Below are positions 32,071 to 54,744 of a DNA stretch of 54,874 nt, piece by piece. Source of the stretch: Actinomycetota bacterium (GTDB lineage: Bacteria > Actinomycetota > Aquicultoria > JACQXZ01). The number at the start of each line of letters is the position of its first letter. The stretch's first letter is position 1. The stretch covers positions 3,141-58,014 of the forward strand of contig JACQXZ010000012.1 of NCBI GenBank assembly GCA_016208465.1, in the 5' to 3' direction. The position numbers were made by a program, and so were the translations under genes. A model generated the notes under the pieces. That model was not told the DNA's origin. It made no database searches and saw only the letters and a list, made by a program, of their open reading frames with translations.

Positions 32071-32185
32071 TTTAACGTAAGGCGTAAAACATAGAGGTTA
32101 CAAGTCACAGGTCACAAGACACAAGTAAAGAAAGGATACAAACGAAGAAACTTGTCACCTGTGACTTGTAGCTTGTGACTTTCAT

Positions 32186-32261
32186 GGGCGCTTAGCTCAA
32201 TTGGTAGAGCAACTGACTCTTAATCAGTAGGTCACAGGTTCGATTCCTGTAGCGCCCACCA
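32186..32261 (+). tRNA. tRNA-Lys (CTT)
   Basis: Cloverleaf; loop CTCTTAA; CCA. Confidence 0.95.
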
Positions 32262-32471
32262 TTAAACGGTTAGGCTAAACGAAGAGACGGAGGCATTTTG
32301 GTGAATGAAGCAAATCATTTAGCCAATGTTAGATGCTGTTGTATTTATTTGCCTAACCTAATTGCAAAATGAAGATTGCAAAATGCAAAGTACAAAATTA
32401 AGTCGCTTGTTTTTAATAGTTTTGCATTTTTCAATTTGCATTTTGAATTTTGTATTGAGTATACGTTTAAT

Positions 32472-32556
32472 GCGAGAGTGGCGGAACTGGCAGACGCGCT
32501 GGACTTAGGAGCCAGTGGGTAATACCGTAGGGGTTCAACTCCCCTCTCTCGCACCA
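32472..32556 (+). tRNA. tRNA-Leu (TAG)
   Basis: Long variable arm; loop CTTAGGA; CCA; A-G mismatch at the base of the anticodon stem. Confidence 0.92.
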
Positions 32557-32567
32557 TATATCACATA

Positions 32568-32665
32568 TGTTCCGCCAAAATGATAATGTCCTATTTAACC
32601 AATTTAGAAATGTCCGGTTCCTCTAAAATGTTTTCCTGGGAGGGAAAACATAATGAGAAGGATAA
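32568..32665 (+). mobile_element. Orphan left-end relic of an IS1202/ISNCY- or IS481-like element
   Basis: Starts TGT; two AATGTCC subterminal repeats; then SD GGAGGG and an ATG with no transposase. Confidence 0.4.
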
Positions 32666-32689
32666 TCCCCGGATTTTGATGTAAAATAT

Positions 32690-32765
32690 GCGGATGTGGC
32701 TCAGTTGGTAGAGCATCACCTTGCCAAGGTGAGAGTCGGGGGTTCGAGTCCCGTCATCCGCTCCA
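32690..32765 (+). tRNA. tRNA-Gly (GCC)
   Basis: Cloverleaf; loop TTGCCAA; CCA. Confidence 0.95.
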
Positions 32766-32961
32766 GTTTTAACGTAAGACGTGAGACATAGAGGTCACAA
32801 GTCACAGGTCACAAGACACAAGTAAAAAAAGATAGAATGAGAAACCCCGACCAAAAGGGTTTGGGGAAAAGAATTTTAAAGTTTCAGGCTGCAAGCCACA
32901 AACTATGGGCTACATACGACTTGAAACTTGCAGCTTGTAAATAAAAAAGGAGATAATTATA

Positions 32962-34368
32962 TTGAAGACAGCAGTAGAGAAATTAGAAGGCAATAAAGTT
33001 TTATTAAAAGTAGAAGTATCTGTGGAAAAGTTTGACGAAGCAATCCATGGCGCCTACAAAGAGGTTGGCAATAAAGTCAAAATTCCCGGTTTCAGAAAAG
33101 GAAAAATACCTCAGGAAATTATTAAGACCAGAGTTGGAGAAAATGTTGTTGTTGAAGAAGCGTTGGATAGAAATTTAATCAACTATTATGCTGAGGCCGT
33201 TAATCACGCTGATATACAGCCAATAGATAAGCCTGATTTTAATGTTATTCAGTCCGAAGCAGGCAAGCCTCTTTTATTCGAAGTTAAAGTGGATGTAAGA
33301 CCAGAAGTTAAGTTAGGCGAATATAAAAATCTGGATATTAAAATAGATCCAATTGAGGTTTCTGATGAGGAAGTAGATAAAGAAGTTGAGAATCTGCGCG
33401 ATAAATTTTCAAAACTTGAAATTTCTCCGGATGATACAAAATTAAAAGAAGGAGATTTTGCCCTAATAGATTTCAAAGGCCATTTGAATGATGAGCCTTT
33501 TGAAGGCGGTTCCGCTAGTGATTATTTGCTCGAGATAGGATCGAAAAACTTTGTTCCCGGGTTTGAAGATCAGTTAATTGGCGCGTCAAAAGGAGAAGAA
33601 CGTCAGATTAGTATAACTTTTCCGGAAGATTATGACGCCGCAGAATTAGCTGGAAAAGAAACAAAATTTGATGTTCAGGTGAAAGAAATAAAATATAAAG
33701 TCCTGCCTGAAATAAATGATGACTTTGCAAAAGAAGTAGGCGGTTTTGATGCCCTCGAAGAATTACGAAAAGATATAAAAGAAAAAATTAAAGACATGAA
33801 GACCAAAAACGCAGAACATGAATTACACGGAAAAATTCTGGAAGCAGTCTATAATGGCTCAGAAGTAGAAATTCCTGAAATAATGATTACCAAGCATTCC
33901 AATGATGTAATAAATAATTTTGCTAATTCTCTCAGCGCCCAAGGCATGAATATGGAAGCTTACTTGAATCAGATAAATAAAGATTTTAAAGCATTTGTTG
34001 ACGATGTAAATAAAAATAGTGAACGAGATATAAAAGTTAAGACTATATTGGAAGCAATAGGAAGAGCAGAAGGATTTATTCCCACAGAGGACGAAATAAA
34101 TGAGGAGATAAATTTTTACGCCAGCAAAAACAAGCAAAACTTTGAAGATCTGAAAAATTTTATTATTACTCATGGCGACTTACCTATACTAAAAAGCGAC
34201 ATAATAGTGAATAAAACATTGCATTGGCTTATCGAGAACGAAAAAGAGAAACTTGGCTGGAAAACAGAAAGCGAAAACATTGAAGAGCCAGATACTTCTG
34301 AAGGACTCGATATGTCTGCTATATTTGAAGGAATAGATCAAATAAAAGGCAAGGAGGAAGAAGAATGA
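32962..34368 (+). CDS. tig: Trigger factor
   Basis: IPGFRKGK; FKBP domain [11 protein letters not shown]. Confidence 0.96.
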
Positions 34369-34961
34369 CAGGGGGCTTAATTCCTATTGTTATAGAACAG
34401 ACCAATCGGGGTGAAAGGTCTTTTGATATATACTCAAGACTTTTAAATGAAAGAATTATATTTTTGGGAACAGAAATTAATGATAATGTGGCAAATGTGA
34501 TTATGGCACAACTGCTTCATTTGGAATCTGAAGATCCGGGAAAAGATATTTTTCTCTATATAAATAGTCCGGGCGGAATCATTACTGCCGGACTGGCAAT
34601 TTATGATACGATGCAGTATGTGAAACCAAATGTATCAACTATCTGCATTGGTCAGGCGGCTAGTATGGCGGCAGTGCTTTTGTCTGCTGGCGAAAAAGGT
34701 AAAAGATATTCTTTGCCAAATGCTCGTATCTTAATCCATCAGCCTCATGGCGGAGTAACAGGTCAGGCAGTTGATATTGAAATTCAGGCTAAGGAAATAC
34801 TCCGAACCAGAAAGGTGTTGGATGAAATTTTAGCGTACCACACGGGTCAGACTCTGGATAAAATCACCAAGGATACTGATCGCGATTTTATAATGACATC
34901 CGAAGAAGCAAAAAGTTATGGGATAGTTGACGAGGTCATTGTTCATAGCAAAGAAAAATAG
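34365..34961 (+). CDS. clpP: ATP-dependent Clp protease proteolytic subunit
   Basis: [22 protein letters not shown]. Confidence 0.97.
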
Positions 34962-35028
34962 GTTTAAAATTAAAAATAAAAAATCAAAATTCAAAAATGA
35001 ACTCAAAATAAAGTTCAAACTTGAGATT

Positions 35029-35125
35029 AAGAGGCTATAGGCTAGAGGTGATAGGCTATAGGTGTAGGTTGGATTGAAAGTTTAAATACTTATCCTATTG
35101 CCCCTAACCCCTCGCCTATTGCCCT
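35029..35125. repeat. Inverted pair of GCTATAG-type heptamer arrays nested in AT-rich heptamer arrays (34964-35247)
   Basis: GAGGCTATAGGCTAGAGGTGATAGGCTATAGG ... CCTATTGCCCCTAACCCCTCGCCTATTGCC. Confidence 0.75.
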
Positions 35126-35298
35126 TTTTGTAATTTTGGCTCCAACTCATTTGGGTTAAGCCCCTAATTTCTCTGAAAATTGCAAATATAGATAAGTAAT
35201 CCTTATTTTGCAATTTGCATTTTTCAATTTACAATTTACAATTCAAGTTAGCGAACGAAGTAAGCCTAACTTGTAGAGAATGTTATTTATGAAAGAAG

Positions 35299-36597
35299 GT
35301 GTCTTGGGTGGTAAAGTTTGGCGAGGGAAGCGATCATTTCAAGTGTTCATTTTGTGGTAAAAGCCAGCGTCAGGTTAAAAAACTTATTGCTGGTCCGGGT
35401 GTATACATTTGTGATGAATGTATAGATCTTTGCAATGAAATAATTGATGAAGAATTAGGATCAGAAGTTGAATTAAAATTAGAAAATCTGCCTAAACCAA
35501 AAGAGATATATAAATTTTTAAGCGAGTATGTTATTGGTCAGGAATCAGCCAAAAAAATCCTTTCCGTTGCTGTTTATAATCATTACAAGAGAATTCAACT
35601 TGGCGCTCAGACTGATGACGATGTAGAGCTTCAGAAAAGCAATATTCTTCTTTTGGGACCAACAGGCTGTGGTAAGACGCTTTTAGCCCAGACTCTTGCG
35701 CGAATTCTTAATGTTCCCTTTGCGATTGCTGATGCTACAGCATTAACTGAAGCTGGTTATGTGGGAGAAGACGTAGAAAATATTTTACTAAAGTTAATTC
35801 AGTCAGCGGATTATGATGTTAAGAGAGCAGAAACAGGAATCATTTATATAGATGAAATTGACAAGGTAGCGCGAAAATTAGAGAGCACTTCTATTACAAG
35901 AGATGTTTCGGGAGAGGGCGTTCAGCAGGCGCTGCTTAAAATTCTGGAGGGAACAGAAGCAAGTGTTCCTCCTCAGGGCGGAAGAAAACATCCTCATCAG
36001 GAATTTATTCAGATTGACACCACAAACATTCTTTTTATCTGCGGCGGCGCGTTTACTGATTTGGAAAAAATTATTGAAACAAGAATAGGCAAGAAAGGAA
36101 TTGGTTTTGGAGCTGATATTAAAAAGCGCGAAGAGAAAGAAATAGGACAGATACTTTCTCAGGTTCTCCCGGAAGACTTATTAAAATATGGTTTAATACC
36201 AGAGTTTGTAGGACGATTGCCTGTAGTTTCAGCGGTTCATAATTTGAAGGAAGAAGACTTGGTGCGTATTTTAGTGGAGCCACGAAACGCTTTGATTAAA
36301 CAATACAAAAAGTTCTTTAAATACGACAATATTGAACTTGTTTTTACTCCTGACGCGCTTAAAGCCATTGCGAGAAAGGCTTTAAAAAGAGCGGGAGGAG
36401 CTCGTGGTTTAAGGGCTGTGCTTGAAGGAATTTTATTGGATGTTATGTATGAATTTCCCTCAAGGTCTGATATAATAAAATGTGTTATTACTAAGGAAGC
36501 AGTCGAACAAAACATCGAACCCACTTTAGTAACTTCGCGATCAGAAAAACATATTTCCAGCAAGAATAAAATAGCCAACAAGGAAGAAACCGCCTAA
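35299..36597 (+). CDS. clpX: ATP-dependent Clp protease ATP-binding subunit
   Basis: CSFCGK zinc finger, [15 protein letters not shown] loop; start may be GTG 35308. Confidence 0.97.
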
Positions 36598-36662
36598 CAG
36601 TCTTTACTTGTGACTTTGTGACTTATAACTTGTAGCTTAACGTAAACGGAGTTGTATTTAAA

Positions 36663-38999: not shown

Positions 39000-39225
39000 T
39001 TCAAGGTTATTTATACATTGAGTCTTTTTCTCTCCTGAGTTTAACTCTTCTGTTGTTGGAATTCAGTAGTCAGAAAATACTAAGCGCTATTTTTTATTTG
39101 TATTTTTTCTGACTTCTGAATTCTGTATTCTGAATACTTAATACCCCACATTTTACCTTCACATATCATTGACTATCATTTATATCTTAGGCATAATCCT
39201 CTTTGAAAGGCAAAATAATAAATTT

Positions 39226-39405
39226 AACTCAGATTTTGCATTAGATTTCGATGAGAAGCGCAGAAATTTTGCTTTTAGGCAAGGAAGACGAGACTTTTTG
39301 GCGCAGGCGTACTTGAATTGTACGTTGAGCATAAAAAGTCTTGACTGACACAGCATAAAAGCAAAATAACAAGCTTATCGCGAAAGCTATTGCAATATCT
39401 GGGTT
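39226..39405. repeat. 180-bp palindromic MITE-like element
   Basis: 25-bp terminal inverted repeat with 4 mismatches; inner TTTTGCTTTTA/TAAAAGCAAAA, AGACTTTTT/AAAAAGTCT and CGTAC/GTACG pairs. Confidence 0.75.
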
Positions 39406-39431
39406 TGATAAAAAGGTCAGGATTAATCTGA

Positions 39432-40106
39432 ATGAGGATTAATTTGTATCAAATTAAAAATTATAAGTTTAGACTAATTTTTTATTTTTTTATTTCAATA
39501 TTTTTTATTCTTTTGTTTAATGGCTGTGGGAGAGAAACAGAAGATGAATTGGTTACTCAACCCAAAAAATCTGACAATCAGTCCGAGAATATAAAATTAA
39601 AAACCAAATCAGACAGTATAACTTTCTGGAAGACTCATACAAACAAAAGATACAATTATTCAATAAGTTATCCTGATAATTGGAGAATGGATGATGATTC
39701 AAGAAATGACTGGAAGGGACAAGGTTATATATCATCAAGACTCGAACTTCATCGATATGGGGCAAAGCAGGTTTCGCAAGATAGATTTAAAGATGGCGCA
39801 TGGTTAATGATTTATATAGCTGGTAATCCTAATAATCTTGCATTGAATGAATGGGTTAAACAAAAAGGGTTTACGGGCAAACAGGAAGAAATAAAAATTG
39901 GCAGTATAAAGGCGGTTAAGATTTCTAATGAAGTAAGCTTGCCGGACAGTTCGGGTCAAAGTGAAATTAAAAGCACGGCAACAGATGTTTATATTTCATA
40001 TGGTGGAAAAATTTATAATATTTCCTCTCAGACCTTTGGAGAGGATTATCAGAAGTAGAGGGAAATAATAGATCAAATTGTGGCTTCATTCAGGTTTTTA
40101 ATTTAA
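39432..40106 (+). pseudogene. Lipoprotein with PsbP-like domain, internal TAG at 40056
   Basis: Lipobox LFNGC; YSISYPDNW; frame continues REIIDQIVASFRFLI after the TAG. Confidence 0.6.
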
Positions 40107-40118
40107 AGACGGTGAAAA

Positions 40119-40352
40119 GTGAATAGGGCGCATAAGGAATTAGAGGTTTGAGAGGAAAGCATTACCGGAGGTTCTTTGAGTGAGTTGGATACTCAGACCG
40201 AAATAGCTTCAAATCTGAAATACTTAAACAATGAGCAAAGACAAAACTTTGAAACAAGACTTGAGTCTATTGCTAAAAAATTAGCAGGATTAATTTCTCA
40301 TACTTTCCATTCACTTTTAACCATTCACCTTTCACTAATTTATGACCTGTGA
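40119..40352 (+). pseudogene. Four-helix-bundle (23S rRNA IVP-like) gene relic
   Basis: MNRAHKELEV*EESI fused in frame to GSLSELDTQTEIASNLKYL...IAKKLAGLI; flanked by inverted GTGAAAA/TTCACTT heptamers. Confidence 0.75.
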
Positions 40353-40400
40353 CTTACAACTTGTGACTTTCAGTTCCGACTTGTTCGGGTTAGGAAAGAA

Positions 40401-40808
40401 ATGAAATGGGTATTATCAGAAAACAAGGCAATGATGAATAAAAGAAATTTTTTTATTGTTCTGATTTTAGTTTATTTGCTCACAAATCTGTCCACTGTCT
40501 TTGCCGCAAATCCTTCGGAAATTCAAAGCAAAGAATTTTTGAACAATATTTTGCTTACGTTATCTATATTATTTGTTTTTTTGTTTTTTGGTGGAGCAAT
40601 TTTGATAATAATAGCGGCATCGTTACAGACAAGAAAAATTTTATTAAGCTACAAAGATCTTTCAATTGAAAAAATTAAAGAAATAGAAGAGCAGCGCAAG
40701 AAAGCTGTTTTAAAGACTTTAAAAATTTTCACTATTGGTGAATTAATTATTATTTTGATTTTGATTGTTTTATTTGGCATTTTATGGTATTTGAATATTG
40801 AAAGGTGA
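40401..40808 (+). CDS. Hypothetical membrane protein
   Basis: Signal-like segment plus two TMs; start may be 40431. Confidence 0.55.
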   Translation: MKWVLSENKAMMNKRNFFIVLILVYLLTNLSTVFAANPSEIQSKEFLNNILLTLSILFVFLFFGGAILIIIAASLQTRKILLSYKDLSIEKIKEIEEQRKKAVLKTLKIFTIGELIIILILIVLFGILWYLNIER

Positions 40809-40992
40809 GATGCGAGGTCACAAGTCGAAGGTCACAAGACACAAGTAAAGAAAAGACGCAAAAGTTCGAAGTTCTATCTCCTAAGTCATAGAAAAGAGTA
40901 GGTTCTAGAAGGCAGTAAGAATAAATTAGGAGTTTTTTATTTTATGGAGAAACAATAAGAAAAGATGGACGAGGGGAAATTCAGGCGTAAAA

Positions 40993-41628: not shown

Positions 41629-41721
41629 AAGGGCTATAGGCGATAGGCTATAGGTCGCAGGGTCTAGATTGAAAGTTCAAATATACATCCCATTGCCTCT
41701 GACCTCTAGCCTCTTGCCTAT
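41629..41721. repeat. Second copy of the GCTATAG heptamer-pair element
   Basis: Same arms and same core GATTGAAAGTTYAAATA as 35029-35125. Confidence 0.75.
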
Positions 41722-41736
41722 CTTATAATTCAAGAG

Positions 41737-44394: not shown

Positions 44395-45771
44395 TTGGAT
44401 TTTAAAGAAGCCATTCAGTATCTTGAATCAACAATTAAATATGGAATTAATCCAAGTCTTAGCAGAATTATTGATTTATGCAACAGACTGGGGAATCCAG
44501 AGCGCAAATTTAAAGTAATTCATATTACAGGAACAAACGGCAAAACATCCACAACAAAAATTATTTCCTCTATTCTTAATCAAATGGGATTCACCGTTGG
44601 GGCTTATACTTCTCCTCACCTTGAAACAGTAAGAGAAAGAATTGTTGTCAATAATCGGATGATTTCAGAAAGAGATTTTGCGGAATGTATTTCGAAAATA
44701 AAGCCCATGGTTGAAGAAGTAAACAAAAAACACAAGGAGCACCTAACCTATTTTGAAATTTTAACCGCGCTTGCTTTTGTATATTTTGCGGAAAAAGAGG
44801 TAGATTGTGCTGTAATTGAAGTTGGCATGGGCGGGAGATGGGATGCCACAAATATTGTTGTGCCCGATGTTGCGGTAGTGCTTAAAATCAGGTTAGATCA
44901 TACTGATTTATTGGGCAACACTATTGTTGAGATTGCAAAAGAGAAGTCTAAAATAGTTAAGAAAGGCTGTAAAGCAATAACCTCCGAATCGCAAAAAGAT
45001 GTTTTAAGGATTATCAGGGAACGCTGCAGGCGCGAGAAAGTTGAATTAAAAGTTTATGAAGATAACCCCCCTCTGTCCCCCCTTGGTAAGGGGGCTCACC
45101 CCCCTCTGTCCCCCCTTGGTAAGGGGGGAATTAAAGGGGGGTTATCAGACGAAAAAGGTTTTTCCTCTATTATAAAATCAAAGAAAGACGGCAATTGGTT
45201 AATTGATATTAAAGGAATTTATTCTGCCTATAAAAATTTAAAGCTTCCTCTGATTGGAAGGCATCAGATTGACAATTGTGCGGCGGCTGTAGCGGCAGTA
45301 GAACTATTTTACGGGAAAGCTTTGCCTGTCGAGAAGCTAAAGAAAGCGCTTGCCAAAGTAAAATGTTTTGGGCGGCTTGAATTAGTTAGCGAGAATCCTC
45401 TTATTGTTTTGGATGGAGCTCATAATCCTGATGGCGCGACGGCTCTTTCAAGAGCGCTTAGAGACGAGTTTGATTACGAACATCTTATTTTAATTATAGC
45501 GGTTCTTTACGACAAAGATGTGGAAAGTATTTTTAATGAACTGATTCCCCTTGCTTCAATGGTAGTAGTTACCCAGAATTCAAATAACCGTTGCGCGCCA
45601 GTGGAATTTTTGAAGGAAATAGTGGCTGGATTTAATTGTGATTTTATGGTTGAACCAAAACTTTCCTCGGCAATAAAAGCAGGATTAGATTATTCGGGCA
45701 AGGATGACTTAATCTGTATTACAGGTTCTTTATATACAGTAGGCGAGGCAAGAGAAATATTAGTAAAATAA
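44395..45771 (+). CDS. folC: Folylpolyglutamate synthase/dihydrofolate synthase
   Basis: ITGTNGKTS, YTSPHL, EVGMGGRWDATN, LDGAHN. Confidence 0.96.
   Translation: MDFKEAIQYLESTIKYGINPSLSRIIDLCNRLGNPERKFKVIHITGTNGKTSTTKIISSILNQMGFTVGAYTSPHLETVRERIVVNNRMISERDFAECISKIKPMVEEVNKKHKEHLTYFEILTALAFVYFAEKEVDCAVIEVGMGGRWDATNIVVPDVAVVLKIRLDHTDLLGNTIVEIAKEKSKIVKKGCKAITSESQKDVLRIIRERCRREKVELKVYEDNPPLSPLGKGAHPPLSPLGKGGIKGGLSDEKGFSSIIKSKKDGNWLIDIKGIYSAYKNLKLPLIGRHQIDNCAAAVAAVELFYGKALPVEKLKKALAKVKCFGRLELVSENPLIVLDGAHNPDGATALSRALRDEFDYEHLILIIAVLYDKDVESIFNELIPLASMVVVTQNSNNRCAPVEFLKEIVAGFNCDFMVEPKLSSAIKAGLDYSGKDDLICITGSLYTVGEAREILVK
45061..45146. repeat. Tandem GC-rich palindromic insertion in frame in folC
   Basis: Two CCCCCTTGGTAAGGGGG hairpins (33-bp period) bounded by GATAACCCCCC/GGGGGGTTATC. 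Confidence 0.85.
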
Positions 45772-45881
45772 TAAAAAATAAAATCTAGGAATTTAAGGAA
45801 GCAAGAAGAAAATATAATAAATTAGATATTAGTTTCTTAGTCGTCAAATTCTTGCTTTTTTTGGCAGAGCGTATAAGATGG

Positions 45882-46009
45882 GTCACAAAGTCACAAGGAC
45901 ACATGTTTAGAAGACAGATTACGGAAGTCAGAAAACAGATTTTTTGAAAACTCCACTTTTATTTAGTCTGTCCTCTGAACTTGCGACCTGTGACTTGCAA
46001 CTTGTGACT
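45882..46009. repeat. Nested heptamer pairs (outer GTCACAA, inner AGACAGA type)
   Basis: GTCACAAAGTCACAAGGACAC...AGAAGACAGA...TCTGTCCTCTG...ACTTGCGACCTGTGACTTGCAACTTGTGAC. Confidence 0.7.
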
Positions 46010-46038
46010 TTTAATTCCGACTATAGACAGGAGAAACA

Positions 46039-46309
46039 TTGAATGCTTTTGAATCGATAGTTTCATTTTTTCAGTCGCCAATTTTTAAATTTACAATCAG
46101 GTTTACAATTTGGTTTATGTTTATTCTCTGGATAAGTCTGGTTTTCTGGACATTCAGAGACGTTTTGCCCGAATTGCAGTAAATTAGTTGAAAAAGATTT
46201 TTTAATTTGCCCCTATTGTGAGGAAAAACTTAAAATAGAATGCCCCGGTTGCAATAGCCCGCTTGAGAAAGACTGGAAAGCCTGTCCTTATTGTAAGAAA
46301 ATTCTCTAA
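46039..46309 (+). pseudogene. Membrane double-zinc-ribbon protein with internal deletion and frameshift
   Basis: SD AGGAG and TTG start; TM ending WTFRD; second frame CPNC..CPYC..CPGC..CPYC. Confidence 0.7.
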
Positions 46310-46317
46310 GAAAAGAT

Positions 46318-46424
46318 GTCACAAGTCACAGGTCACAAAGTCACAAGTAGCAAAGGATGGAAAAAGAAGGTTCAAAAGATTGATTGTTTAAAGCTTTCAA
46401 CTTATGACTTAAAACTTATGACTT
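46318..46424. repeat. Inverted GTCACAA heptamer pair
   Basis: GTCACAAGTCACAGGTCACAAAGTCACAAGT ... ACTTATGACTTAAAACTTATGAC. Confidence 0.7.
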
Positions 46425-46439
46425 AAAGGAGGAATTATT

Positions 46440-46853
46440 TTGCAGAAAACTTTTGTAATGATTAAACCGGATGGGGTAAAAAAGAATATAATCGGAGAGG
46501 TAATTAAACGTTTTGAAGCAAAAGGATTAAAAGTTATTGGTTTAAAACTGCTTCAGCTTTCGAAAGAAAAAGCGGAGGAACTTTATTCAATCCATCGCGA
46601 AAGGCCATTTTTTGAGAGTCTGGTTAATTTTGTTACTTCAGGACCAGTGGTAGTTATGGTTTTAACCGGAGATGATGTTGTCAGGATTGTAAGAGAAACA
46701 ATGGGAGCAACTAATCCTAAAGAGGCTGATCCGGGAACAATCAGGGCTGATTTCGCGGAAGAAATTGAAGAGAACATCGTTCATGGTTCCGATTCTGAAG
46801 AAAGCGCTTCAAGAGAAATTCCAATATTTTTTAGCCAGAATGAGTTATGTTAG
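46440..46853 (+). CDS. ndk: Nucleoside diphosphate kinase
   Basis: IKPDGV, PGTIR, NIVHGSDS. Confidence 0.97.
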   Translation: MQKTFVMIKPDGVKKNIIGEVIKRFEAKGLKVIGLKLLQLSKEKAEELYSIHRERPFFESLVNFVTSGPVVVMVLTGDDVVRIVRETMGATNPKEADPGTIRADFAEEIEENIVHGSDSEESASREIPIFFSQNELC

Positions 46854-46867
46854 TTTAAGGATTAAAA

Positions 46868-47431: not shown

Positions 47432-47485
47432 GTTTCAGCGTGTTGTATTAAGATTATTTCGTAAAAAAGTTGATCGTTTTAGACT

Positions 47486-47686
47486 AAATTAAAAATAAAA
47501 AATCAAATATCAAAATGACAAATCAAAATTCAAAAATAAGCTTAAAAAGCTGTAAGCTTTTTAAGAAAAACGAAAAAGATAACTAAATAATTAACTTTTC
47601 GCATATTTACTTTGAAAAGCTGGAAATAATTTTTTTATTTTAATATGTATTTTTGATTTTTTATCTTTGATTTTTGATTTATTTTT
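47486..47686. repeat. Inverted AT-rich (ATCAAAA-type) heptamer pair between hdrC and hdrB
   Basis: AAAAATCAAATATCAAAATGACAAATCAAAATTCAAAAAT ... ATTTTTGATTTTTTATCTTTGATTTTTGATTT. Confidence 0.65.
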
Positions 47687-47749
47687 CATCTTTAAGCTTT
47701 GTTATTTGGAATTTCTAACTGCACTACTTGTTTTACAGAAGGGGATATA

Positions 47750-48628
47750 ATGTCTCAATACGCATATTATCCGGGTTGCTCGCTTGAAGGCACAGGGATT
47801 GAATTTGACCAGTCAAGTCGGGCAATCGCGAAAGCTCTGGGAATTAAATTGAAAGAACTTCCAGACTGGAATTGTTGCGGCGCCTCACAGATGCATAAGA
47901 TAGATCCAGTTTTGGCGGTTGCTGTTCCAGCGAGGAATTTAGCCATGGCTGAAAAATTAAAACTGGACATTACTGCGCCTTGTCCTGCTTGTTCAATTCG
48001 TTTAAAAACCGCAAACTATAAGATGGAGCGAGATGAAAAGCTTAAAGAAAAAGTTAATAGTCTGCTCCCCCATCCTTACAACCTGACTGTTAAAGCTCAG
48101 TCTTTTTTAGAAACAGTTTATAAAGAAAATTCAGCAGAGCGTATTCGTGAAATTAAAAAATATTCTCTTGATAAATTTAAAATCGCACCCTATTATGGAT
48201 GTTTAGTGGTAAGACCAAAGGAGATAGCTCAATTTGATGATGACGAGAATCCAACTTCAATGGATGAGTTATTGGCTGCTTGCGGAGCTGAAATAATTGA
48301 TTATCCTTTCAAAACAGAATGCTGTGGCGCTTCATATGGTTTAACTAAAAAAGAAATGGTTTTAAAATTAACGGCTGATTTGCTTGAGCAGGCTGTTAAG
48401 CGGGGAGCAAATGCGGTTGCAGTTGCCTGTCCGTTATGTCATCAGAATCTTGATGTAAGACAGAAACAAATTAATTCCAAATTAAAAATGAATTTAAATA
48501 TTCCTGTTTATTATTTTACAGAATTAATCGGACTCGCTCTTGGTTTTAATGTTAAAAGATTAGGTATTGATAAGCACGGTGTTAGTTCTGTTCGGCAGGT
48601 GGAAAGATTGTTAGGTTATAAGTTGTAA
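47750..48628 (+). CDS. hdrB: Heterodisulfide reductase subunit B
   Basis: YYPGC, two CCG domains, ACPLC; start ATG 47750 after GAAGGGG. Confidence 0.92.
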   Translation: MSQYAYYPGCSLEGTGIEFDQSSRAIAKALGIKLKELPDWNCCGASQMHKIDPVLAVAVPARNLAMAEKLKLDITAPCPACSIRLKTANYKMERDEKLKEKVNSLLPHPYNLTVKAQSFLETVYKENSAERIREIKKYSLDKFKIAPYYGCLVVRPKEIAQFDDDENPTSMDELLAACGAEIIDYPFKTECCGASYGLTKKEMVLKLTADLLEQAVKRGANAVAVACPLCHQNLDVRQKQINSKLKMNLNIPVYYFTELIGLALGFNVKRLGIDKHGVSSVRQVERLLGYKL

Positions 48629-48657
48629 GGTCACAAGGATACAAGTCACAAGTAAAT

Positions 48658-49160
48658 AAATTTGGTTCTTTCTCAAATCGAGTGGGTAATGCGTTAAATC
48701 CTCCCCTTAACAAGGGGAGGAAAGGAGGGGTTTACGATAAAGGTATTTAATAAAACAGAGCAAAAAATAAAGAGAAAGACATTGAGGAATAATATGCCTC
48801 TGGCAGAGGTCATCTTATGGAGCAGATTAAAAAGCAGACAACTTGGAGGCTATAAATTCAGGAGACAATATAGCGTTGAATATTTTGTGATAGATTTTTA
48901 TTGTCCTGAGTTAAAATTAGCCATAGAAGTTGATGGGGATTCCCACTATACAGAAAAAGCAGGTTCATCAGATAAGGATAGACAAATTAAGATTGAAAGT
49001 TTTGGCATTAAGATTTTGAGATTTAATAATAAGGAGATATATAAAAATTTAGATGGGGTATTATTAAAAATATTGGAACAGATTAAACAAATAACCACCC
49101 CTGCCCCTCCTTGCTAAGGAGGGGATTTACCCGCTCGGAATGAGAAAGAACCATAAATTT
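48658..49160. mobile_element. Inverted-repeat-bounded DUF559 cassette
   Basis: Outer IR 48658-48689 / 49127-49160; inner GC hairpins at 48700-48720 and 49104-49124; all nested in a GTCACAA heptamer pair. Confidence 0.7.
48734..49117 (+). CDS. DUF559 (Vsr-like PD-(D/E)xK) endonuclease
   Basis: KFRRQ, IDFYC, IEVDGDSH, LRFNN; frame extends upstream to an ACG at 48734 after GGAGGGG (start possibly mutated). Confidence 0.85.
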   Translation, partial: TIKVFNKTEQKIKRKTLRNNMPLAEVILWSRLKSRQLGGYKFRRQYSVEYFVIDFYCPELKLAIEVDGDSHYTEKAGSSDKDRQIKIESFGIKILRFNNKEIYKNLDGVLLKILEQIKQITTPAPPC

Positions 49161-49251
49161 TAACTTACAACCTGTGACTTTTATGTGAGTCAATTTGACA
49201 ATAAAGTTTCTTTTATAAAGAATAAATATTTTTAAAGTAAAGGGATATGTA

Positions 49252-51225
49252 ATGCGAATAGGATTTTTTATCTGTCATTGTGGAAGTAATATCGCAGGCA
49301 CTGTTGATGTTGTCCAAGTGGCTGAATACGTATCGAAATTACCTAATGTTGTTCATTCGGTTCATTTAATGTATACCTGCTCTCAGCCCGGGCAAAAAGA
49401 AATTGTTGATGCGATAAAAGAAAAAAGATTAACCCGTATTGTAATCGCGGCTTGTTCTCCTAAGATGCATGAAGTAACTTTCAGGAGGGCAATCGAGCGG
49501 ACCGGTCTTAATCCCTATCTCTTTGAAATGGCAAATATACGCGAGCATTGTTCATGGATTCATGATGACAGAGAACTGGCAACCCAAAAAGCAATTGAAC
49601 TGGTTGAGATGACTATAGCTAAAGTTGCCAGACACGAATCTCTTTTTAGCAATAAGGTAGATGTAAATAAAAAAGTTTTAATTATCGGAGGAGGAATAGC
49701 AGGAATTCAGGCGGCTCTTGATATGGCTGACGGAGGATTTGAGGTAGTATTGGTTGAGCGGGAGCCAACAATTGGCGGTAAAATGGCTCAGCTTGATAAC
49801 ACTTTTCCGACAATTGACTGTTCTTCCTGTATTTTAACTCCAAAAATGGTAGATGCCGGTCAGCATGAAAAAATTAAATTAATTACCTACGCTGAAATTG
49901 AAAGTGTGTCAGGATACGTCGGAAACTTCGAAGTAAAAGTTCATAAAAAACCGCCTTATGTTAATTATGAAAAATGTATTGGATGCGGGATTTGTGAACG
50001 TAAATGTCCGGCTAAGGCGCCCAATAGATTTAATCTTGGGATAGGCGAAGGAAAAGCAATTTACATTCCATTCCCTCAAGCAGTTCCAAAAGTTGCGACA
50101 ATTACAAAAGAACATTGCATTTATTTTAAATCTTTAGCGGAAGGCAAACTAAACAGATGCAAGATATGCCAGAAAGTTTGTCATGTAAGCGCAGTTGATT
50201 TTGAGATTAAAGATGAATATATAAACGAGAAAGTTGGGGCGATTATTACAGCAGTTGGATTTGATCTTTTCAACCATTCAGTTTATCAGGAATATGGAGG
50301 CGGGCGTTACCCGGATGTAATCAGCTCACTTCAGTATGAACGGCTTCTTTCTGCATCGGGTCCAACAGAGGGAAAAATTAAAAGGCCATCGGACGGAAAG
50401 GAACCTGAAACAGTAGTTTTTATTAGTTGTGTTGGTTCGCGGGATGATTCTGTTGGGCGTCCCTATTGCTCAGGTATTTGTTGTATGTATATGGCAAAAC
50501 AGGCAATTTTAACTAAGGATCATCTTCCTGAGTCAAAAACATTTATTTTTTATATAGATATAAGAGCGGGTAGTAAAGCTTATGAAGAATTTGTTAAACG
50601 GGCGCAGGTTGAAGCAGGCGCTCAATATATTCGGGGAAGAGTGGCAAAGATATATCCTGAAAATGGCGGATTAATAGTTCGGGGAGTGGATACTTTATTA
50701 GGCCAACAGGTTGAAGTGATGGCTGATTTGGTTGTTCTTGCAAATGGTGTTATCTCGTCCAGAGGTTCAAACGAACTTGCTCAGAAACTTCGAATTCCTT
50801 ATGACCAGTATGGATTTTTAAGCGAAGGACATCCAAAGTTAAAACCGGTTGAGACAAACACAGCAGGAATTTTTTTAGCAGGCGCTTGTCAGGGACCCAA
50901 GGATATTCCTTCTTCGGTTGCGCAGGGATCGGCTACAGCAGGAAAAGTTCAGGGATTGCTTTCTAAAGATCAGCTCGAAACCAGTCCATTGGTTGCTTTA
51001 GTTGAATGCAGCCGCTGTATTGGTTGTTTTAAGTGTTTAAAAGTATGTCCTTATAATGCTATAGAAAGAATAACTTTAAAAGATGGTTCTTTAGTGGCGA
51101 GCGTTATTCCAACGGTTTGTCAGGGATGTGGTCTTTGTGTGGCAACCTGTCCATCAGCATCAATAACACTTAAAGGGTTTACCGACGATCAGTTAATCGC
51201 TGAAGTGGAAGCGTTGTGTCGGTGA
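49252..51225 (+). CDS. hdrA: Heterodisulfide reductase subunit A
   Basis: CHCGSNI, AACSP, GGGIAG, FPTIDCSSC, ferredoxin motifs. Confidence 0.96.
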   Translation: MRIGFFICHCGSNIAGTVDVVQVAEYVSKLPNVVHSVHLMYTCSQPGQKEIVDAIKEKRLTRIVIAACSPKMHEVTFRRAIERTGLNPYLFEMANIREHCSWIHDDRELATQKAIELVEMTIAKVARHESLFSNKVDVNKKVLIIGGGIAGIQAALDMADGGFEVVLVEREPTIGGKMAQLDNTFPTIDCSSCILTPKMVDAGQHEKIKLITYAEIESVSGYVGNFEVKVHKKPPYVNYEKCIGCGICERKCPAKAPNRFNLGIGEGKAIYIPFPQAVPKVATITKEHCIYFKSLAEGKLNRCKICQKVCHVSAVDFEIKDEYINEKVGAIITAVGFDLFNHSVYQEYGGGRYPDVISSLQYERLLSASGPTEGKIKRPSDGKEPETVVFISCVGSRDDSVGRPYCSGICCMYMAKQAILTKDHLPESKTFIFYIDIRAGSKAYEEFVKRAQVEAGAQYIRGRVAKIYPENGGLIVRGVDTLLGQQVEVMADLVVLANGVISSRGSNELAQKLRIPYDQYGFLSEGHPKLKPVETNTAGIFLAGACQGPKDIPSSVAQGSATAGKVQGLLSKDQLETSPLVALVECSRCIGCFKCLKVCPYNAIERITLKDGSLVASVIPTVCQGCGLCVATCPSASITLKGFTDDQLIAEVEALCR

Positions 51226-51316
51226 TAGGTAAGAGGCTAGAGGCAATAGGCAAGAATTTTAACCCATGGCCCCTAGCTCGTATTAAAGTTATGAAAGGAA
51301 AAGTTTTAATATAAAA

Positions 51317-51757
51317 ATGTCAGATATTCAGAAAGATATTCAAAACAATGATTCCAATATTAAAATTATTGCTTTTTTGTGCAACTGGTGTTCTTACGGT
51401 GGCGCTGATACGGCCGGAACAAGTCGTCTCAAACAGCCGTCTGAAGTAAGAATCATCAGGATTCCGTGCACCGGCAGAGTGAACCCGCTTTTTCCTATGA
51501 AGGCATTTATCGATGGCGCTGACGGTGTTCTTATTTCTGGTTGTCACCCCAACGATTGTCATTATATTGAAGGAAATTTTTACGCGCGGAGAAGACTAGA
51601 AGTATTAAAATATTTTATCGACTTTATGGGAATAGAAAAGGAACGTTTCGATTATCAATGGGTTTCAGCTTCAGAGGGCCAAAGATGGCAGCAGTTAATT
51701 ATAGATTTTGTTGAACGGATTAAAAAACTGGGACCGATTGGGAAGTGTGAGACGTAG
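51317..51757 (+). CDS. mvhD: MvhD/FlxD [2Fe-2S] subunit
   Basis: FLCNWCSY, PCTGR, GCHPNDCHY, WVSASEG. Confidence 0.93.
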   Translation: MSDIQKDIQNNDSNIKIIAFLCNWCSYGGADTAGTSRLKQPSEVRIIRIPCTGRVNPLFPMKAFIDGADGVLISGCHPNDCHYIEGNFYARRRLEVLKYFIDFMGIEKERFDYQWVSASEGQRWQQLIIDFVERIKKLGPIGKCET

Positions 51758-51778
51758 CGTTGGGGCTTGTCCCCAACG
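51754..51778 (+). repeat. GTAG-family REP
   Basis: GTAG followed by perfect CGTTGGGG-CTTGT-CCCCAACG. Confidence 0.7.
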
Positions 51779-51822
51779 AAGGAAGTTAGGAAGATGAGAA
51801 GGTAGGAAGATAGGAGAACAAG

Positions 51823-52791
51823 ATGGATCGCCTTGATATATTAAAAGAAAAAGTAAAAGAGATTCTGCCAGAAGTTGATTTTGTAATTGGTTATAGTAAA
51901 GGTTTTGATATTCTGCATCCGTCTCCTTATTTTGTCAGTGAAGAAAGGCAAATTAGAAATTTAATCTGGGATGAATTTTGCATAAATAATTTCGCGAATT
52001 ATCTGCCTCCCCCAAAAAGAGTTCCTAATGGCTTGTTTAAACAGGATGAAAAAATTGGTCTGGTGGTGAAAGGCTGTGATTCCCGTTCAATTATTCAGCT
52101 TTTGCAGGAGGAAATAATTTTCCGTGATACTTTTATAATTCTTGGAATGCCCTGTGAGATGAAAATAGATTTAAAAAAGTTAAGAGAAAAGATTGATATA
52201 GATTATATTCAGTCATTTAATGTTTCAGGCGATAAAGCTGAGGTTAAAACTTTACTTGAAAAGAAAACAATTAATCTGGATGAAATTCTTTATGATAAAT
52301 GCCTTTATTGTAAATATCCCAATCCTTTGATTTATGATTATTTAATCGGGGATAAAGTCAACCCTCGGTCACGTGAAGGGTTTTACAAAGATGTTGACGA
52401 GTTTGAAATGATCTCAAATGAAGAAAAGATTAGTTGCTGGGAAAAAGAGTTTGACAGATGCATCAGGTGCTATGCCTGTCGGGAAGCTTGTCCCAATTGT
52501 TATTGTCAATATCAGTGTATTGCTCAGACAAGAAGACCTCATTGGATAAGTCAAAGCACTGAGACAATTGATAAAAAATTTTTTCAGATGTTTCGGGCTT
52601 TTCATAATGCGGGACGCTGTACTGATTGCGGAGAGTGCGACAGAGTTTGTCCGGTTGGAATACCAATCAGTAAGATTATGAAAAAATTAACCAAAGAAGT
52701 TTTAAGATTGTTTAATTATGAGGCAGGAGTGGATGAAAAATTAATTCCTCCTCTTATGACGTATAAAAGAGAAGAAGATAATATTGGGTAG
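51823..52791 (+). CDS. flxC: FlxC-like 4Fe-4S dicluster protein
   Basis: KGCDSRS, CIRCYACREACP, HNAGRCTDCGECDRVCP; position in operon. Confidence 0.8.
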   Translation: MDRLDILKEKVKEILPEVDFVIGYSKGFDILHPSPYFVSEERQIRNLIWDEFCINNFANYLPPPKRVPNGLFKQDEKIGLVVKGCDSRSIIQLLQEEIIFRDTFIILGMPCEMKIDLKKLREKIDIDYIQSFNVSGDKAEVKTLLEKKTINLDEILYDKCLYCKYPNPLIYDYLIGDKVNPRSREGFYKDVDEFEMISNEEKISCWEKEFDRCIRCYACREACPNCYCQYQCIAQTRRPHWISQSTETIDKKFFQMFRAFHNAGRCTDCGECDRVCPVGIPISKIMKKLTKEVLRLFNYEAGVDEKLIPPLMTYKREEDNIG

Positions 52792-52817
52792 GCACCTGAA
52801 TTTATTGCGAGGATAAA

Positions 52818-53852
52818 ATGATCAAAAAGATTCCATTAAATAAAGTTAAAAATTTATTAGATGATTTAAGCGGAGATTATAAGGTTTTTGCGCCGGTTAA
52901 AAACGGCAGAAGCATTATCTTCGATGAATATAGAAGCGATAAAGAAGTAAACCTTGAAAAATTTTCTGTTACTTCAATTAAAGAAGCGCTTTTCCCGTCT
53001 CACGAAGCAATGATAAAATATGATTACAAGAAGGATCCGTCTGATTTAAGTAAAACATCTTTGTCTCTTAAGTCTGAAGTTAATTTTGATAAAACGGTTA
53101 TTTTTGGAGTTCATCCCTGTGATGCGCGTGGATTTTTTACCTTTGACAAAGTTTATGCCGGCAATGGTTACAGGGATGTTTATTACAAAACCAAAAGAGA
53201 TGCCACAGCAATTGTTGCCATTACCTGCGCTAATCCACTGGCAACATGTTTTTGTACCACTGTTGGCGGCTCTCCGGCCGATTCAGAAGGAACAGATGTT
53301 TTGCTTACTAAAGTTGATGAATTTTATTATGCTGAAAGTTATTCGGAAAAAGGAGAACTACTGCTTAAGAATTCAAATTTCTCATCCCCCCAAGGAGGGG
53401 TCGATAACGAGCAGGTTCTAAAAATAAAAGAAGAAGCTGTTCAAAAGTTAGATAAAAATTTTTCCACTGAAGGCATTGAGAATAAACTGCTAAAAATATT
53501 TTCTGATTCCGACTACTGGAAAAACGCGACAAGTAAATGCTTAAGCTGTGGAATTTGCACTTATGTTTGTCCAACTTGTTATTGTTTTAATATTACCGAC
53601 GAAGGCGTTATGGGCCGCGGGGAAAGAATTAGAAGCTGGGATTCCTGTATGTTTCCTCTTTTTACTCTTGAGGCGAGCGGACATAATCCACGCGCCCGGA
53701 AATTTGAGCGTTATCGGAATCGAATCAACCATAAATTTAGTTATCTGGTAATTCGCAATAATATAATCGGATGTGTTGGCTGTGGACGTTGCATCAGGCA
53801 TTGTCCTGTTTCGCTGGATATTAGAGAGGTTGTTAAAGGAGTGATTGATTAA
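52818..53852 (+). CDS. flxB: FlxB (AsrA-like) 4Fe-4S protein
   Basis: GVHPCD, CFC, CLSCGICTYVCPTCYCF, CVGCGRCIRHCP. Confidence 0.82.
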   Translation: MIKKIPLNKVKNLLDDLSGDYKVFAPVKNGRSIIFDEYRSDKEVNLEKFSVTSIKEALFPSHEAMIKYDYKKDPSDLSKTSLSLKSEVNFDKTVIFGVHPCDARGFFTFDKVYAGNGYRDVYYKTKRDATAIVAITCANPLATCFCTTVGGSPADSEGTDVLLTKVDEFYYAESYSEKGELLLKNSNFSSPQGGVDNEQVLKIKEEAVQKLDKNFSTEGIENKLLKIFSDSDYWKNATSKCLSCGICTYVCPTCYCFNITDEGVMGRGERIRSWDSCMFPLFTLEASGHNPRARKFERYRNRINHKFSYLVIRNNIIGCVGCGRCIRHCPVSLDIREVVKGVID

Positions 53853-54719
53853 ATGTCTGAATTTACAACGATTGTTACTTCAGACAAGGATGCGACCAAT
53901 CCTTATCTGCCTGAAATAGGAATAATTAAAAAAGTTGTCAAAGAAACAGCGGGCATAAAATCTTTTCAGGTTGTTTTAAAAGATGAAGAAAAGATGAAGA
54001 GGTTTAAATTTAAACCGGGACAAGTCGCTCAGCTTTCAGTTTTTGGGGCGGGAGAATCAACTTTTGCAATTAGTTCTTCTCCAACGCGTCCTGAATATTT
54101 TCAGTTTAGCGTAATGATGACAGGTGAAAATACGTCTGCTTTGCATGAACTGTTAGAAGGTGACGAAATTGGTGTCAGGGCTCCGCTTGGAAACTGGTTT
54201 GATTATGAAATGATGAAAGGAAAAAACATTGTTTTTGTTGGCGGAGGGATTGGAGTGGCGCCTCTTAGATCCTTGATTTTATTTATGCTGGATAACCGTT
54301 CGGATTATGGAGATTTAAAAGTTATTTATGGCGCCCGGACCCCAAATGATCTTTGTTTTTCTCTTGATTTAAAAGACTGGCAGCGAAGAGAAGATATAGA
54401 TTTGATTCTAACAGTTGATACAGACTTTCCGGGATGGGAAGGAAAAGTTGGTTTTGTTCCTGTGGTTTTAGGTGAAGAAGACCCTTCGCCCAAGAATACA
54501 ATTGCAATCACCTGCGGTCCTCCAATAATGATAAAGTTTGTTTTGCACGAGCTGGAAAGGATTGGTTTTGGAGATAAACAGGTAATTACTACTCTTGAAC
54601 GCAGAATGAAATGCGGCATTGGAATTTGCGGACGCTGCAATATTGGTTACAAATATATTTGTGTAGATGGACCTGTTTTTACTATGGAAGAACTCAAGGA
54701 ACTGCCGAATGAGATGTGA
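53853..54719 (+). CDS. flxA: FlxA (AsrB/PyrK-like) FAD/NAD-binding [2Fe-2S] subunit
   Basis: GGGIGVAP, CGPP, MKCGIGICGRC, CVDGPVF. Confidence 0.85.
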   Translation: MSEFTTIVTSDKDATNPYLPEIGIIKKVVKETAGIKSFQVVLKDEEKMKRFKFKPGQVAQLSVFGAGESTFAISSSPTRPEYFQFSVMMTGENTSALHELLEGDEIGVRAPLGNWFDYEMMKGKNIVFVGGGIGVAPLRSLILFMLDNRSDYGDLKVIYGARTPNDLCFSLDLKDWQRREDIDLILTVDTDFPGWEGKVGFVPVVLGEEDPSPKNTIAITCGPPIMIKFVLHELERIGFGDKQVITTLERRMKCGIGICGRCNIGYKYICVDGPVFTMEELKELPNEM

Positions 54720-54744
54720 CGGGAAGACGTGAGATGTAAGACGT

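Follow-up and report, generated by a model that had tools for sequence, protein, structure and literature searches.

The window analysed here is a 54,874-nt stretch (forward-strand positions 3,141 to 58,014) of contig JACQXZ010000012.1, part of a 58-kb contig in a genome bin of an Actinomycetota bacterium (GCA_016208465.1). The bin comprises 1.75 Mb in 105 contigs, has a G+C content of 37% and is 89.5% complete. The right half of the window carries housekeeping genes on the plus strand: four tRNA genes, tig, clpP, clpX, lon, three open reading frames (ORFs) of no known family and valS, followed by a folC-like Mur ligase gene, ndk, hdrC, hdrB, hdrA, mvhD and genes for Fe-S proteins. Tandem arrays of 7-bp units (heptamers), often followed by their reverse complement, sit in the gaps between these genes. 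The original prediction, made from the sequence alone, regarded them as remains of an undescribed class of hairpin-bounded mobile cassettes that insert at gene ends, nest in one another and lose their cargo. A combination of Tandem Repeats Finder (TRF), an inverted-repeat search and the sequence itself placed every predicted array at or within a few bases of its expected position, although the unit of one of them (39060-39137, given as AGACAGA) is better read as AATTCAG/AGTCAGA. We conclude that a mobile hairpin cassette has left its footprints here and is still present in live copies. The arrays are probably the arms that form the stems of small palindromic cassettes, which belong to the same kind of element as the S23p-type intervening sequences (IVS) of rRNA but reside here outside rRNA.

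The evidence begins with the cargo. PF05635, the S23p/Avd-like four-helix-bundle family, has 10 matches in the genome, nine of them over the cut-off; TIGR02436 scores 113 and 96 bits against a cut-off of 24, and PDB entry 2gsc, which has five chains, is matched with an E-value of 1e-18. Nine of the ten loci lie between inverted repeat arrays of 7-, 8- or 10-mers that start approximately 20-110 nt from the matched region. The arms at these nine loci belong to the families GACAACA, GGTGAAA (two loci), GTCACAA (two loci), ATCAAAA and GTTCAAA, to a 10-mer and to an 8-mer, and eight different repeat families are found among the PF05635 loci. At the tenth locus, on contig C62 between tRNA genes, TTGCAAG-type arrays are present on both sides and were left unpaired by the aligner. 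A cassette consists of two inverted arrays of tandem 7-mers (sometimes 8-mers) enclosing a short leader, a gene of approximately 120 codons and a short trailer, and all eight full four-helix-bundle genes are co-oriented with the gene upstream. None of the PF05635 copies was found in rRNA: all ten are flanked by protein-coding genes or tRNAs, the genome not having been searched for a 23S gene. Avd, the related protein of diversity-generating retroelements, is matched weakly (NF033474, 36 bits against a cut-off of 80). The single RVT_1 match of the genome lies on C14, a contig without PF05635, and on these two grounds such a retroelement was rejected as a candidate.

One decayed cassette is located in the window itself (40095..40335, plus strand), with GGTGAAA-type arms at 40108-40128 and 40309-40335. 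Its ORF (40155-40286) matches PF05635 with an E-value of 7e-6, below the Pfam cut-off, and the element aligns over its length with a full cassette on contig C104, minus a clean 162-nt internal deletion and a 35-nt deletion at the 3' end. Its predicted identity as a four-helix-bundle relic is therefore upheld. Compared with C104, the relic has one heptamer unit fewer in one arm and extra units in the other, which indicates that slippage does act, but within the arms of an element.

Loss of the gene is also seen in the ATCAAAA family, which comprises one full cassette (C11:35370-35980) and 38 unique gene-less copies, 39 in all. The gene-less copies match both ends of the cassette and lack most or all of the gene. 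Twenty-nine copies are 150-280 bp in length and align end to end in two subfamilies: subfamily A (approximately 10 copies) retains the 3' end of the ORF in its centre, and subfamily B (approximately 13 copies) has an inner heptamer hairpin in the place of the gene. The centres of subfamily A are 112-124 nt long with a mean pairwise identity of 0.77 and those of subfamily B 123-152 nt with 0.70, while identity between A and B is 0.57. Each subfamily is collinear and of near-constant length, and each gene-less form therefore had a single origin and then spread. The exact bases of the deletion junctions could not be fixed, as global alignment scattered in the AT-rich DNA and gave inconsistent breakpoints. 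The window copy, a member of subfamily A in the hdrC/hdrB gap (47451..47715, plus strand), has arms at 47486-47539 and 47631-47680, a centre (47540-47630) that keeps the 3' end of the four-helix-bundle ORF, and outer flanks common to other copies; it corresponds to the segments 62-159 and 416-540 of the full cassette. The ATCAAAA arms are themselves enclosed by additional inverted layers. By our own tally, 19 of 22 ATCAAAA copies in co-directional contexts are oriented with transcription.

Judging from these alignments, cassettes lose their gene by internal deletion, leaving relics and empty shells that persist, and the gene-less derivatives multiply until dozens of copies are scattered through the genome, in the manner of miniature inverted-repeat transposable elements (MITEs). 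The predicted loss of cargo is thus supported by the comparison of C104 with the window relic, by the 38 gene-less ATCAAAA copies and by the empty shells. Behaviour as simple slippage microsatellites, one of the outcomes that would have counted against the original prediction, does not describe these families, which share non-repetitive centres and flanks across loci; plain slippage is insufficient to produce multi-copy, dispersed, gene-less families of this type.

A catalogue of arms was compiled for the whole genome. Period 7 accounts for 717 of the 2194 TRF rows (the next commonest periods have 236, 217 and 204 rows), and a stricter scanner returned 219 period-7 arrays, compared to 0-30 for the periods 4-12 and 0-3 in shuffled sequence. 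Although ORFs cover 87% of the genome, 185 of these 219 arrays are intergenic. The 693 period-7 TRF rows with a 7-nt consensus reduce to 148 canonical units, of which GTCACAA (93 rows) and then ATCAAAA (47 rows) are the commonest. As direct tandem 7-nt units that are mostly intergenic, the arrays also have the properties by which simple microsatellites (long simple sequence repeats, LSSRs, or short tandemly repeated repetitive sequences, STRRs) are recognized. An inverted partner within 700 nt was detected for 68 of the 219 arrays at a score of at least 12, compared to 15 in a complement-only control, and for 27 arrays compared to one at a score of at least 16. Pairing of the arrays is real, yet most arrays are single in this test; arms are not unpaired genome-wide, and the claim that arrays are paired with their reverse complement holds without being universal.

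The position of the arrays is as distinctive as their period. Between co-directional genes lie 161 of the 185 intergenic arrays, and 44 of these 161 start within 3 nt of the upstream stop codon, compared to seven expected under random placement. In several window arrays the stop codon falls within the first repeat unit, and three window shells come after the CCA end of a tRNA, so that the predicted start right after a stop codon or CCA is borne out. The statement that gaps are filled by such shells fits the window but is overstated genome-wide: arrays found with the strict scanner cover 5,422 of 231,807 intergenic bases (2.3%), and 135 co-directional gaps have at least one array (for scale, 747 co-directional gaps are at least 60 nt long). 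When seven window hairpins were folded as RNA, five were far more stable than shuffled sequences (z-scores of -2.9 to -5.5) and two were weak (-2.05 and -1.4).

Comparison with other genomes indicates that some of these gaps were formerly tight. The clpP-clpX gap is 337 nt long in the window, compared to 0-78 nt without any array in 28 of 28 relatives from the same class (ClpX 75-83% identical), and the same 28 relatives have ordinary GC-rich terminators after clpX. In the window it is filled by nested shells (34964..35245, plus strand), with an outer A-rich arm at 34964-35001, an outer T-rich arm at 35200-35245 and an inner GCTATAG hairpin (arms 35029-35068 and 35095-35131; z-score -3.4). Similarly, the hdrC-hdrB and hdrB-hdrA gaps are 268 and 624 nt long, compared to mostly -8 to 18 nt in distant operons. 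The genome is alone in its family, and its nearest genome belongs to another family; a metagenome scan with HdrB gave a best relative of 44% identity. The same hdrC-hdrB gap is occupied by other heptamer hairpins, including a nested one, in the metagenome relatives nearest to this genome (42-44% identity). From these gap lengths, operon gaps that were tight in the ancestral state have been filled here, and the predicted insertion at gene ends is supported, at class distance, by a clpP-clpX gap that is filled in the window and empty in all 28 relatives.

The association between gene and arms extends well beyond this genome. PF05635 is present in 25 of 48 genomes of the class; several copies per genome are frequent, and so are fragments and copies interrupted by stop codons. 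Of 28 loci in class relatives, 13 pass a strict test (inverted-repeat score of at least 11 and period-7 agreement of at least 0.6 in both arms). We then took the best 80 of 597 relatives from a scan of one genome per species. Among these 80, the nearest (77% identical) are in bins labelled Planctomycetia, Omnitrophota and WOR-3, and others are in bins of Elusimicrobia, Acidobacteriota, Chloroflexota, Bacteroidota, several candidate-phyla-radiation groups, Gemmatimonadales and Proteobacteria. Inverted arms surround the gene in 61 of the 75 relatives with full flanks, 39 with period 7 (41 of 77 in an earlier count without the full-flank requirement) and 16 with period 8. When pseudo-genes shifted by 700 or 900 nt were used in the same loci, inverted arms were found in 0-2 of 70-75, none of them periodic. 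Four-helix-bundle genes can accordingly be regarded as the usual cargo of heptamer arms, as originally proposed (nine of ten loci here and periodic arms in 55 of 75 relatives). A plasmid collection yielded 26 matching records, mostly from Nostocales. Of eight plasmid loci examined, five have inverted heptamer arms, one has 8/9-mer arms and two have none; on plasmids of Anabaena sp. 90, Picosynechococcus PCC 7003 and Nostoc edaphicum, cassettes separate the gene pairs cas6/cas4 and cas10/cmr3, both in CRISPR-Cas operons, and the pair of ribonucleotide reductase subunit genes, leaving approximately 35-45 nt on either side.

In the 61 cassettes that were compared, the arms follow the protein. The mean distance between arm units is 1.68 of 7 for protein pairs at least 60% identical, compared to 2.8-3.8 for more distant pairs, and the Spearman correlation is -0.20, with 0 of 2000 permutations as low. 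Because the sample consists of relatives of one query and its rows are kin, this correlation demonstrates co-inheritance of arms and gene and not functional co-evolution. Taken with the range of bins above, it shows that arms and gene are inherited and transferred as one unit, also across phyla.

It is some thirty years since IVS carrying an S23p ORF were recognized in rRNA genes, and heptamer arrays have been used in strain typing for as long. We know of no established origin or means of movement for the former, nor of an established source for intergenic heptamer arrays. The closest published counterpart of the elements described here is the Coxiella IVS. According to that study (PMC4990558), it is a 428-nt selfish element in helix 45 of 23S rRNA with an S23p ORF, terminal inverted repeats that form a 28-bp stem, and two to three tandem GACAGAT heptamers 5' of the ORF, whose number varies between strains. 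It is cleaved by RNase III in vitro, with the 5' site at the first repeat; it carries a large ORF deletion in one strain, and it is described as horizontally acquired by a mobility mechanism that is not known (PMC4990558). The same architecture having been published, the elements cannot be called an undescribed class. Like the S23p-type 23S rRNA IVS of Leptospira, Coxiella and others, they have a PF05635/TIGR02436 ORF that is prone to deletion, a stem of terminal inverted repeats and tandem heptamers of variable copy number in the 5' arm. They differ in lying outside rRNA, in being multi-copy and nested, and in forming gene-less families of dozens; furthermore, RNase III processing has been shown for the rRNA IVS and is a prediction for the elements here. 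The kind of element is already known as the S23p-type IVS, and what is new is its non-rRNA, multi-copy, nested, MITE-forming guise across phyla.

Other repeat classes resemble the elements in part. Like MITEs, they are short (approximately 150-280 bp), have inverted ends, are dispersed in dozens of copies and descend from a longer, coding element that was shortened by internal deletion. In contrast to MITEs, the full-length parent encodes no recognizable transposase (it has no ORF besides the four-helix-bundle gene), the ends consist of tandem repeats arranged in several layers, one within another, and no target-site duplication was seen by eye. The STRRs of heterocystous cyanobacteria are direct tandem heptamer repeats to which no role has been assigned, and small dispersed repeats in Nostoc were reportedly found by Elhai et al. 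in 2008 to be nested in tandem heptamers and in their own copies. STRRs and heptamer LSSRs are likewise intergenic and fall into many sequence families per genome, and the STRR taxa Nostoc, Calothrix and Anabaena carry four-helix-bundle genes between inverted heptamer arrays on plasmids; the arrays described here differ in being paired arms of cassettes with a defined cargo. Repetitive extragenic palindromic (REP) sequences, and the REP-based hairpins (REPINs) associated with REP-associated tyrosine transposases (RAYTs), are also extragenic palindromes downstream of genes at high copy number, but they have one REP consensus where the elements have many unrelated arm sequences, and no link to the Y1-like genes examined was found here. 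The TAACTGA repeats of Beggiatoaceae, Cyanobacteria and Bacteroidetes are intergenic heptamers in distant phyla for which horizontal spread is suspected (MacGregor 2015, PMC4679880). Unlike the arrays here, they are direct and mostly lie just 5' of start codons, with one inverted pair reported; that paper makes no mention of S23, four-helix or intervening-sequence genes. A Geobacter genome paper lists heptanucleotide elements without linking them to four-helix-bundle genes. Our literature search, which covered few subscription journals and excluded Elhai 2008 and supplements, returned no paper that links non-rRNA four-helix-bundle genes to flanking heptamer arrays.

A mechanism can be proposed by analogy with the rRNA IVS. 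Cassettes sit directly after stop codons within operons and after tRNA 3' ends, oriented with the host genes. There, the element would be transcribed by read-through, and its arms would pair into a long stem to be cut by RNase III, as in rRNA; such cutting would allow insertion to be tolerated inside operons and tRNA clusters. The genome encodes an RNase III gene. Hairpin loops, including the loops of older shells, may be favoured targets. Nesting is observed, as predicted, at 34964-35245, at 45882-46010 and in the layered ATCAAAA copies.

Several observations weigh against interpreting the arrays as arms of a mobile cassette. A partner is detectable for only 68 of the 219 arrays, and a cassette origin is assumed for most of the single ones. 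Stem mismatches lack the wobble signature of the sense strand (G:U versus A:C, 16 versus 20 here and 98 versus 102 elsewhere), a symmetry that argues against the sense RNA being under strong selection and would fit either young copies or complementarity restored through DNA-level copying. The search for a mobilizing enzyme gave no plausible candidate: the single reverse transcriptase, which looks by eye like the group II intron type, and the three of the five Y1_Tnp matches that could be examined (the other two have no gene model) are all free of arrays within 600 nt. No target-site duplication was seen by eye in the ATCAAAA flank alignments, in which the layering of repeats in the arms blurs the element ends. 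The different hairpins at hdrC-hdrB in the closest relatives could fit a conserved host function instead of repeated insertion. Finally, empty, shell and full states were compared at class distance because closer relatives are lacking, and copy counts are approximate because the genome is an incomplete bin in many contigs.

A host function is the basis of the alternative that we take most seriously, in which the hairpins are extragenic elements made in place and grown by slippage to serve the host (as terminators, processing sites or mRNA stabilizers, in the manner of REP sequences), and four-helix-bundle genes merely prefer their loops. Arrays that begin at stop codons and 3' arms that finish in short T runs would be expected of such elements, as would the 19 of 22 copies that point with transcription, the unrelated hairpins in the hdrC-hdrB gap of the closest relatives and a conserved small motif with a ribosome-binding-like end after several shells (described below). 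In addition, rRNA IVS replace loops of existing helices (PMC4990558). In-place slippage, however, cannot yield whole composite shells that recur, centres included, at many loci, and it does not account for arms that co-vary with the enclosed gene across phyla. As the relatives have GC-rich terminators after clpX and empty clpP-clpX gaps, and no G:U excess is present on the sense strand, we consider this explanation unlikely. If host function is left aside and the arrays are taken as nothing more than period-7 microsatellites produced by polymerase slippage, with inverted pairs arising by chance, the frequency of heptamers is at least familiar: in many prokaryotes no other long simple repeats are reported to be as common (Mrazek 2007, summarized in the introduction of PMC4679880), and unit numbers differ between paralogous arms here and between Coxiella strains (PMC4990558). 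The excess of inverted partners over the control (68 compared to 15), the absence of periodic arms at shifted positions (0 of 70-75), the conserved non-repetitive centres of dispersed families, the intergenic location of 185 of 219 arrays and their non-random start at stop codons together make this hardly credible.

Two further alternatives concern what moves the elements. The shells might be REPIN-like and moved in trans by a Y1 or other host transposase, with the four-helix-bundle gene as a passenger. The 1.75-Mb genome has five Y1_Tnp matches, and the elements are palindromic, extragenic and multi-copy, as REPINs are (PMC3116915). We regard this as very improbable since no period-7 array lies near the three Y1-like genes that were examined, since one sequence-specific transposase would not explain arm families that are many and unrelated in sequence, and since the association with PF05635 holds across phyla. 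Alternatively, the four-helix-bundle protein might itself be the specificity factor of the element: as a ring of five subunits, it would bind the heptamer arrays of its own cassette and either drive or guard the copying of that cassette. This would suit the presence of one full copy per multi-copy family (one full and 38 gene-less copies for ATCAAAA), the co-variation of arm units with protein sequence and the five chains of 2gsc, which is described as a homopentamer (PMC4990558). PF05635 resembles Avd, whose relatives act with nucleic-acid machinery (PMC10053308), and Ralph and McClelland, as cited in PMC4990558, proposed that the ORF serves mobility. Against this, simple co-inheritance can account for the co-variation, the Coxiella study argues for an S23p that is decaying and probably not expressed (PMC4990558), and many copies in relatives are fragmentary or contain stop codons; such a role for the protein is improbable at present.

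Mobile hairpin cassettes of the S23p type might nevertheless be part of something larger. We would speculate, with a low probability attached, that hairpin cassettes form a superfamily spread across the bacteria, of which the S23p IVS is only the branch resident in rRNA, and in which an Avd-like pentamer recognizes its own 7- or 8-mer arrays, approximately one unit per protomer, and promotes copying of DNA or RNA between matching arms. If so, gene-less shells would be mobilized in trans, the intergenic heptamers of many phyla, including the cyanobacterial STRRs, would be footprints of such cassettes, and a protein-repeat recognition code would exist together with a possibly RNA-mediated transposition chemistry. 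Even in the more restricted form, two old puzzles, the rRNA intervening sequences and the intergenic heptamer arrays, may share one answer. The data tie the two together, in that periodic arrays are arms of S23p-type cassettes that are mostly non-rRNA, cross phyla, multiply without their gene and fill operon gaps. Strains such as Nostoc punctiforme and Anabaena PCC 7120, which are harmless, can be cultured and have cassettes in cas and ribonucleotide reductase operons, are available as test systems. For annotation, shells account for much odd intergenic DNA in the small genomes of uncultivated bacteria.

The remaining elements of the window, all on the plus strand unless stated, begin in the tRNA cluster. 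A second copy of the final 25 nt of tRNA-Arg (31799-31875) lies at 32046-32070, approximately 170 nt downstream, and resembles a scar left by integration at the 3' end of this tRNA; an element of approximately 45 nt between the tRNA and this repeat has further copies at 32827-32872 and on contig C18. Between the tRNA-Arg 3' duplicate and tRNA-Lys lies an empty GTCACAA hairpin (32096..32181; 5' arm 32096-32126, loop 32127-32149, 3' arm 32150-32181) with a predicted RNA fold of -34.7 kcal/mol (z-score -5.5), whose 5' flank and arm recur at 32766-32826 and on C18, C25 and C96. On the last of these contigs, six successive matches to the GTCACAA 5'-arm module (C96:4693-5030) form a tandem array of arm modules. 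The tRNA-Lys/tRNA-Leu gap holds an empty TGCAAAA hairpin (32360..32456; arms 32360-32398 and 32420-32456) that folds weakly (z-score -2.05) and has similar copies of approximately 90 nt on at least nine other contigs. After tRNA-Gly is a composite (32794..32941) that starts with a GTCACAA 5' arm (32794-32826) and continues with a short dispersed element (32827-32872) and a small TTGCAAG-type hairpin (32878-32941).

Directly after the clpX stop codon is a single GTCACAA arm of the 3' type, with TTGTGAC units (36604..36636), for which no partner was found within its 65-nt gap. An empty hairpin of the AATTCAG/AGTCAGA type follows lon (39059..39137); its arms are a 95% complementary pair (z-score -5.3). 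Immediately downstream of the four-helix-bundle relic, a single 3'-type GTCACAA arm (40338..40368) is complementary (39 nt, 72%) to a single 5'-type arm at 40817..40849, and the two pair across a 135-aa ORF (40401-40808) that has no Pfam match. After several shells, just before the next start codon, there is a conserved motif of approximately 21 nt (window 40370-40392, and contigs C83, C12, C9 and C10), a small hairpin ending purine-rich that may restore a ribosome-binding site for the downstream gene. Before valS lies an empty GCTATAG hairpin (41629..41722; z-score -2.9) with eight other copies of 86-103 nt, one of them at 35040-35135 in the window.

Between the Mur ligase gene and ndk there are two shells. 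The first is nested and empty (45882..46010), with outer GTCACAA arms at 45882-45903 and 45979-46010 and an inner hairpin at 45905-45975; it folds at -47.1 kcal/mol (z-score -5.4), and full-length paralogues of 45875-46015 were found on C72 (92.8% identity over 138 nt), C75, C31, C51 and C6. The second, a GTCACAA-type hairpin before ndk (46318..46427), has a 3' arm decayed to TTATGAC units and folds weakly (z-score -1.4); paralogues of 46310-46432 occur on C89, C42 and C96. The small gene between them (46039-46310) is split over two frames and is probably frameshifted: its N-terminal part (46039-46182) looks membrane-like, and its C-terminal part, which ends at 46310, is a double zinc ribbon.

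The hdrB/hdrA gap contains a GTCACAA shell (48629..49178; arms 48629-48655 and 49160-49178) in which a DUF559 gene had been named as a second type of cargo. The ORF is confirmed inside the shell (48782-49117, E-value 4e-29), but it comes with repeats of its own, namely outer inverted repeats (48660-48689 and 49127-49156) and GC-rich mini-hairpins (48700-48731 and 49094-49125). All seven DUF559 copies in the genome are bounded by such GC-rich mini-hairpins, some also by an outer 30-nt inverted repeat, whereas heptamer arms on both sides are present only at the window copy, one more copy having arrays upstream only. The DUF559 gene is a separate, unrelated inverted-repeat element that landed in the loop of one shell. 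On contig C56 (10764-11081), a DUF559 copy and its GC-rich flanks lie within a 315-aa open frame. By eye, the surrounding sequence resembles a type I restriction specificity subunit, which points to a coding gene that has taken up the element in frame. The folC-like Mur ligase gene (44395-45771) contains, at 45065-45127, a perfect in-frame tandem duplication of 33 nt, through which a repeated PPLSPLGKG peptide is added; the duplicated unit is a GC-rich mini-hairpin like those that form the inner inverted repeats of DUF559 elements.

Further along, a GCTATAG-type 5' arm (51225..51255) overlaps the hdrA stop codon, and an AAGACGT-type array (54713..54745) overlaps the stop codon of the gene ending at 54719. 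A second AAGACGT-type array (13986..14018, minus strand) lies in the half of the window with minus-strand genes, where further arrays are found at 10853-10885, 14704-14748 and 15407-15435. The switch between the two halves falls at approximately 29250-29400, where gene orientation and GC skew both change sign (a minus-strand gene ends at 29247 and a plus-strand gene starts at 29398), and could be a replication origin or merely a divergent promoter region. As gene orientation and GC skew flip together, the directions of transcription and replication are inseparable in the orientation bias of the elements. At 51780-51815, immediately 5' of a start codon at 51823, is an 8-nt array (AGGAAGAT, approximately 4.5 copies) that is purine-rich and resembles repeated ribosome-binding sites.

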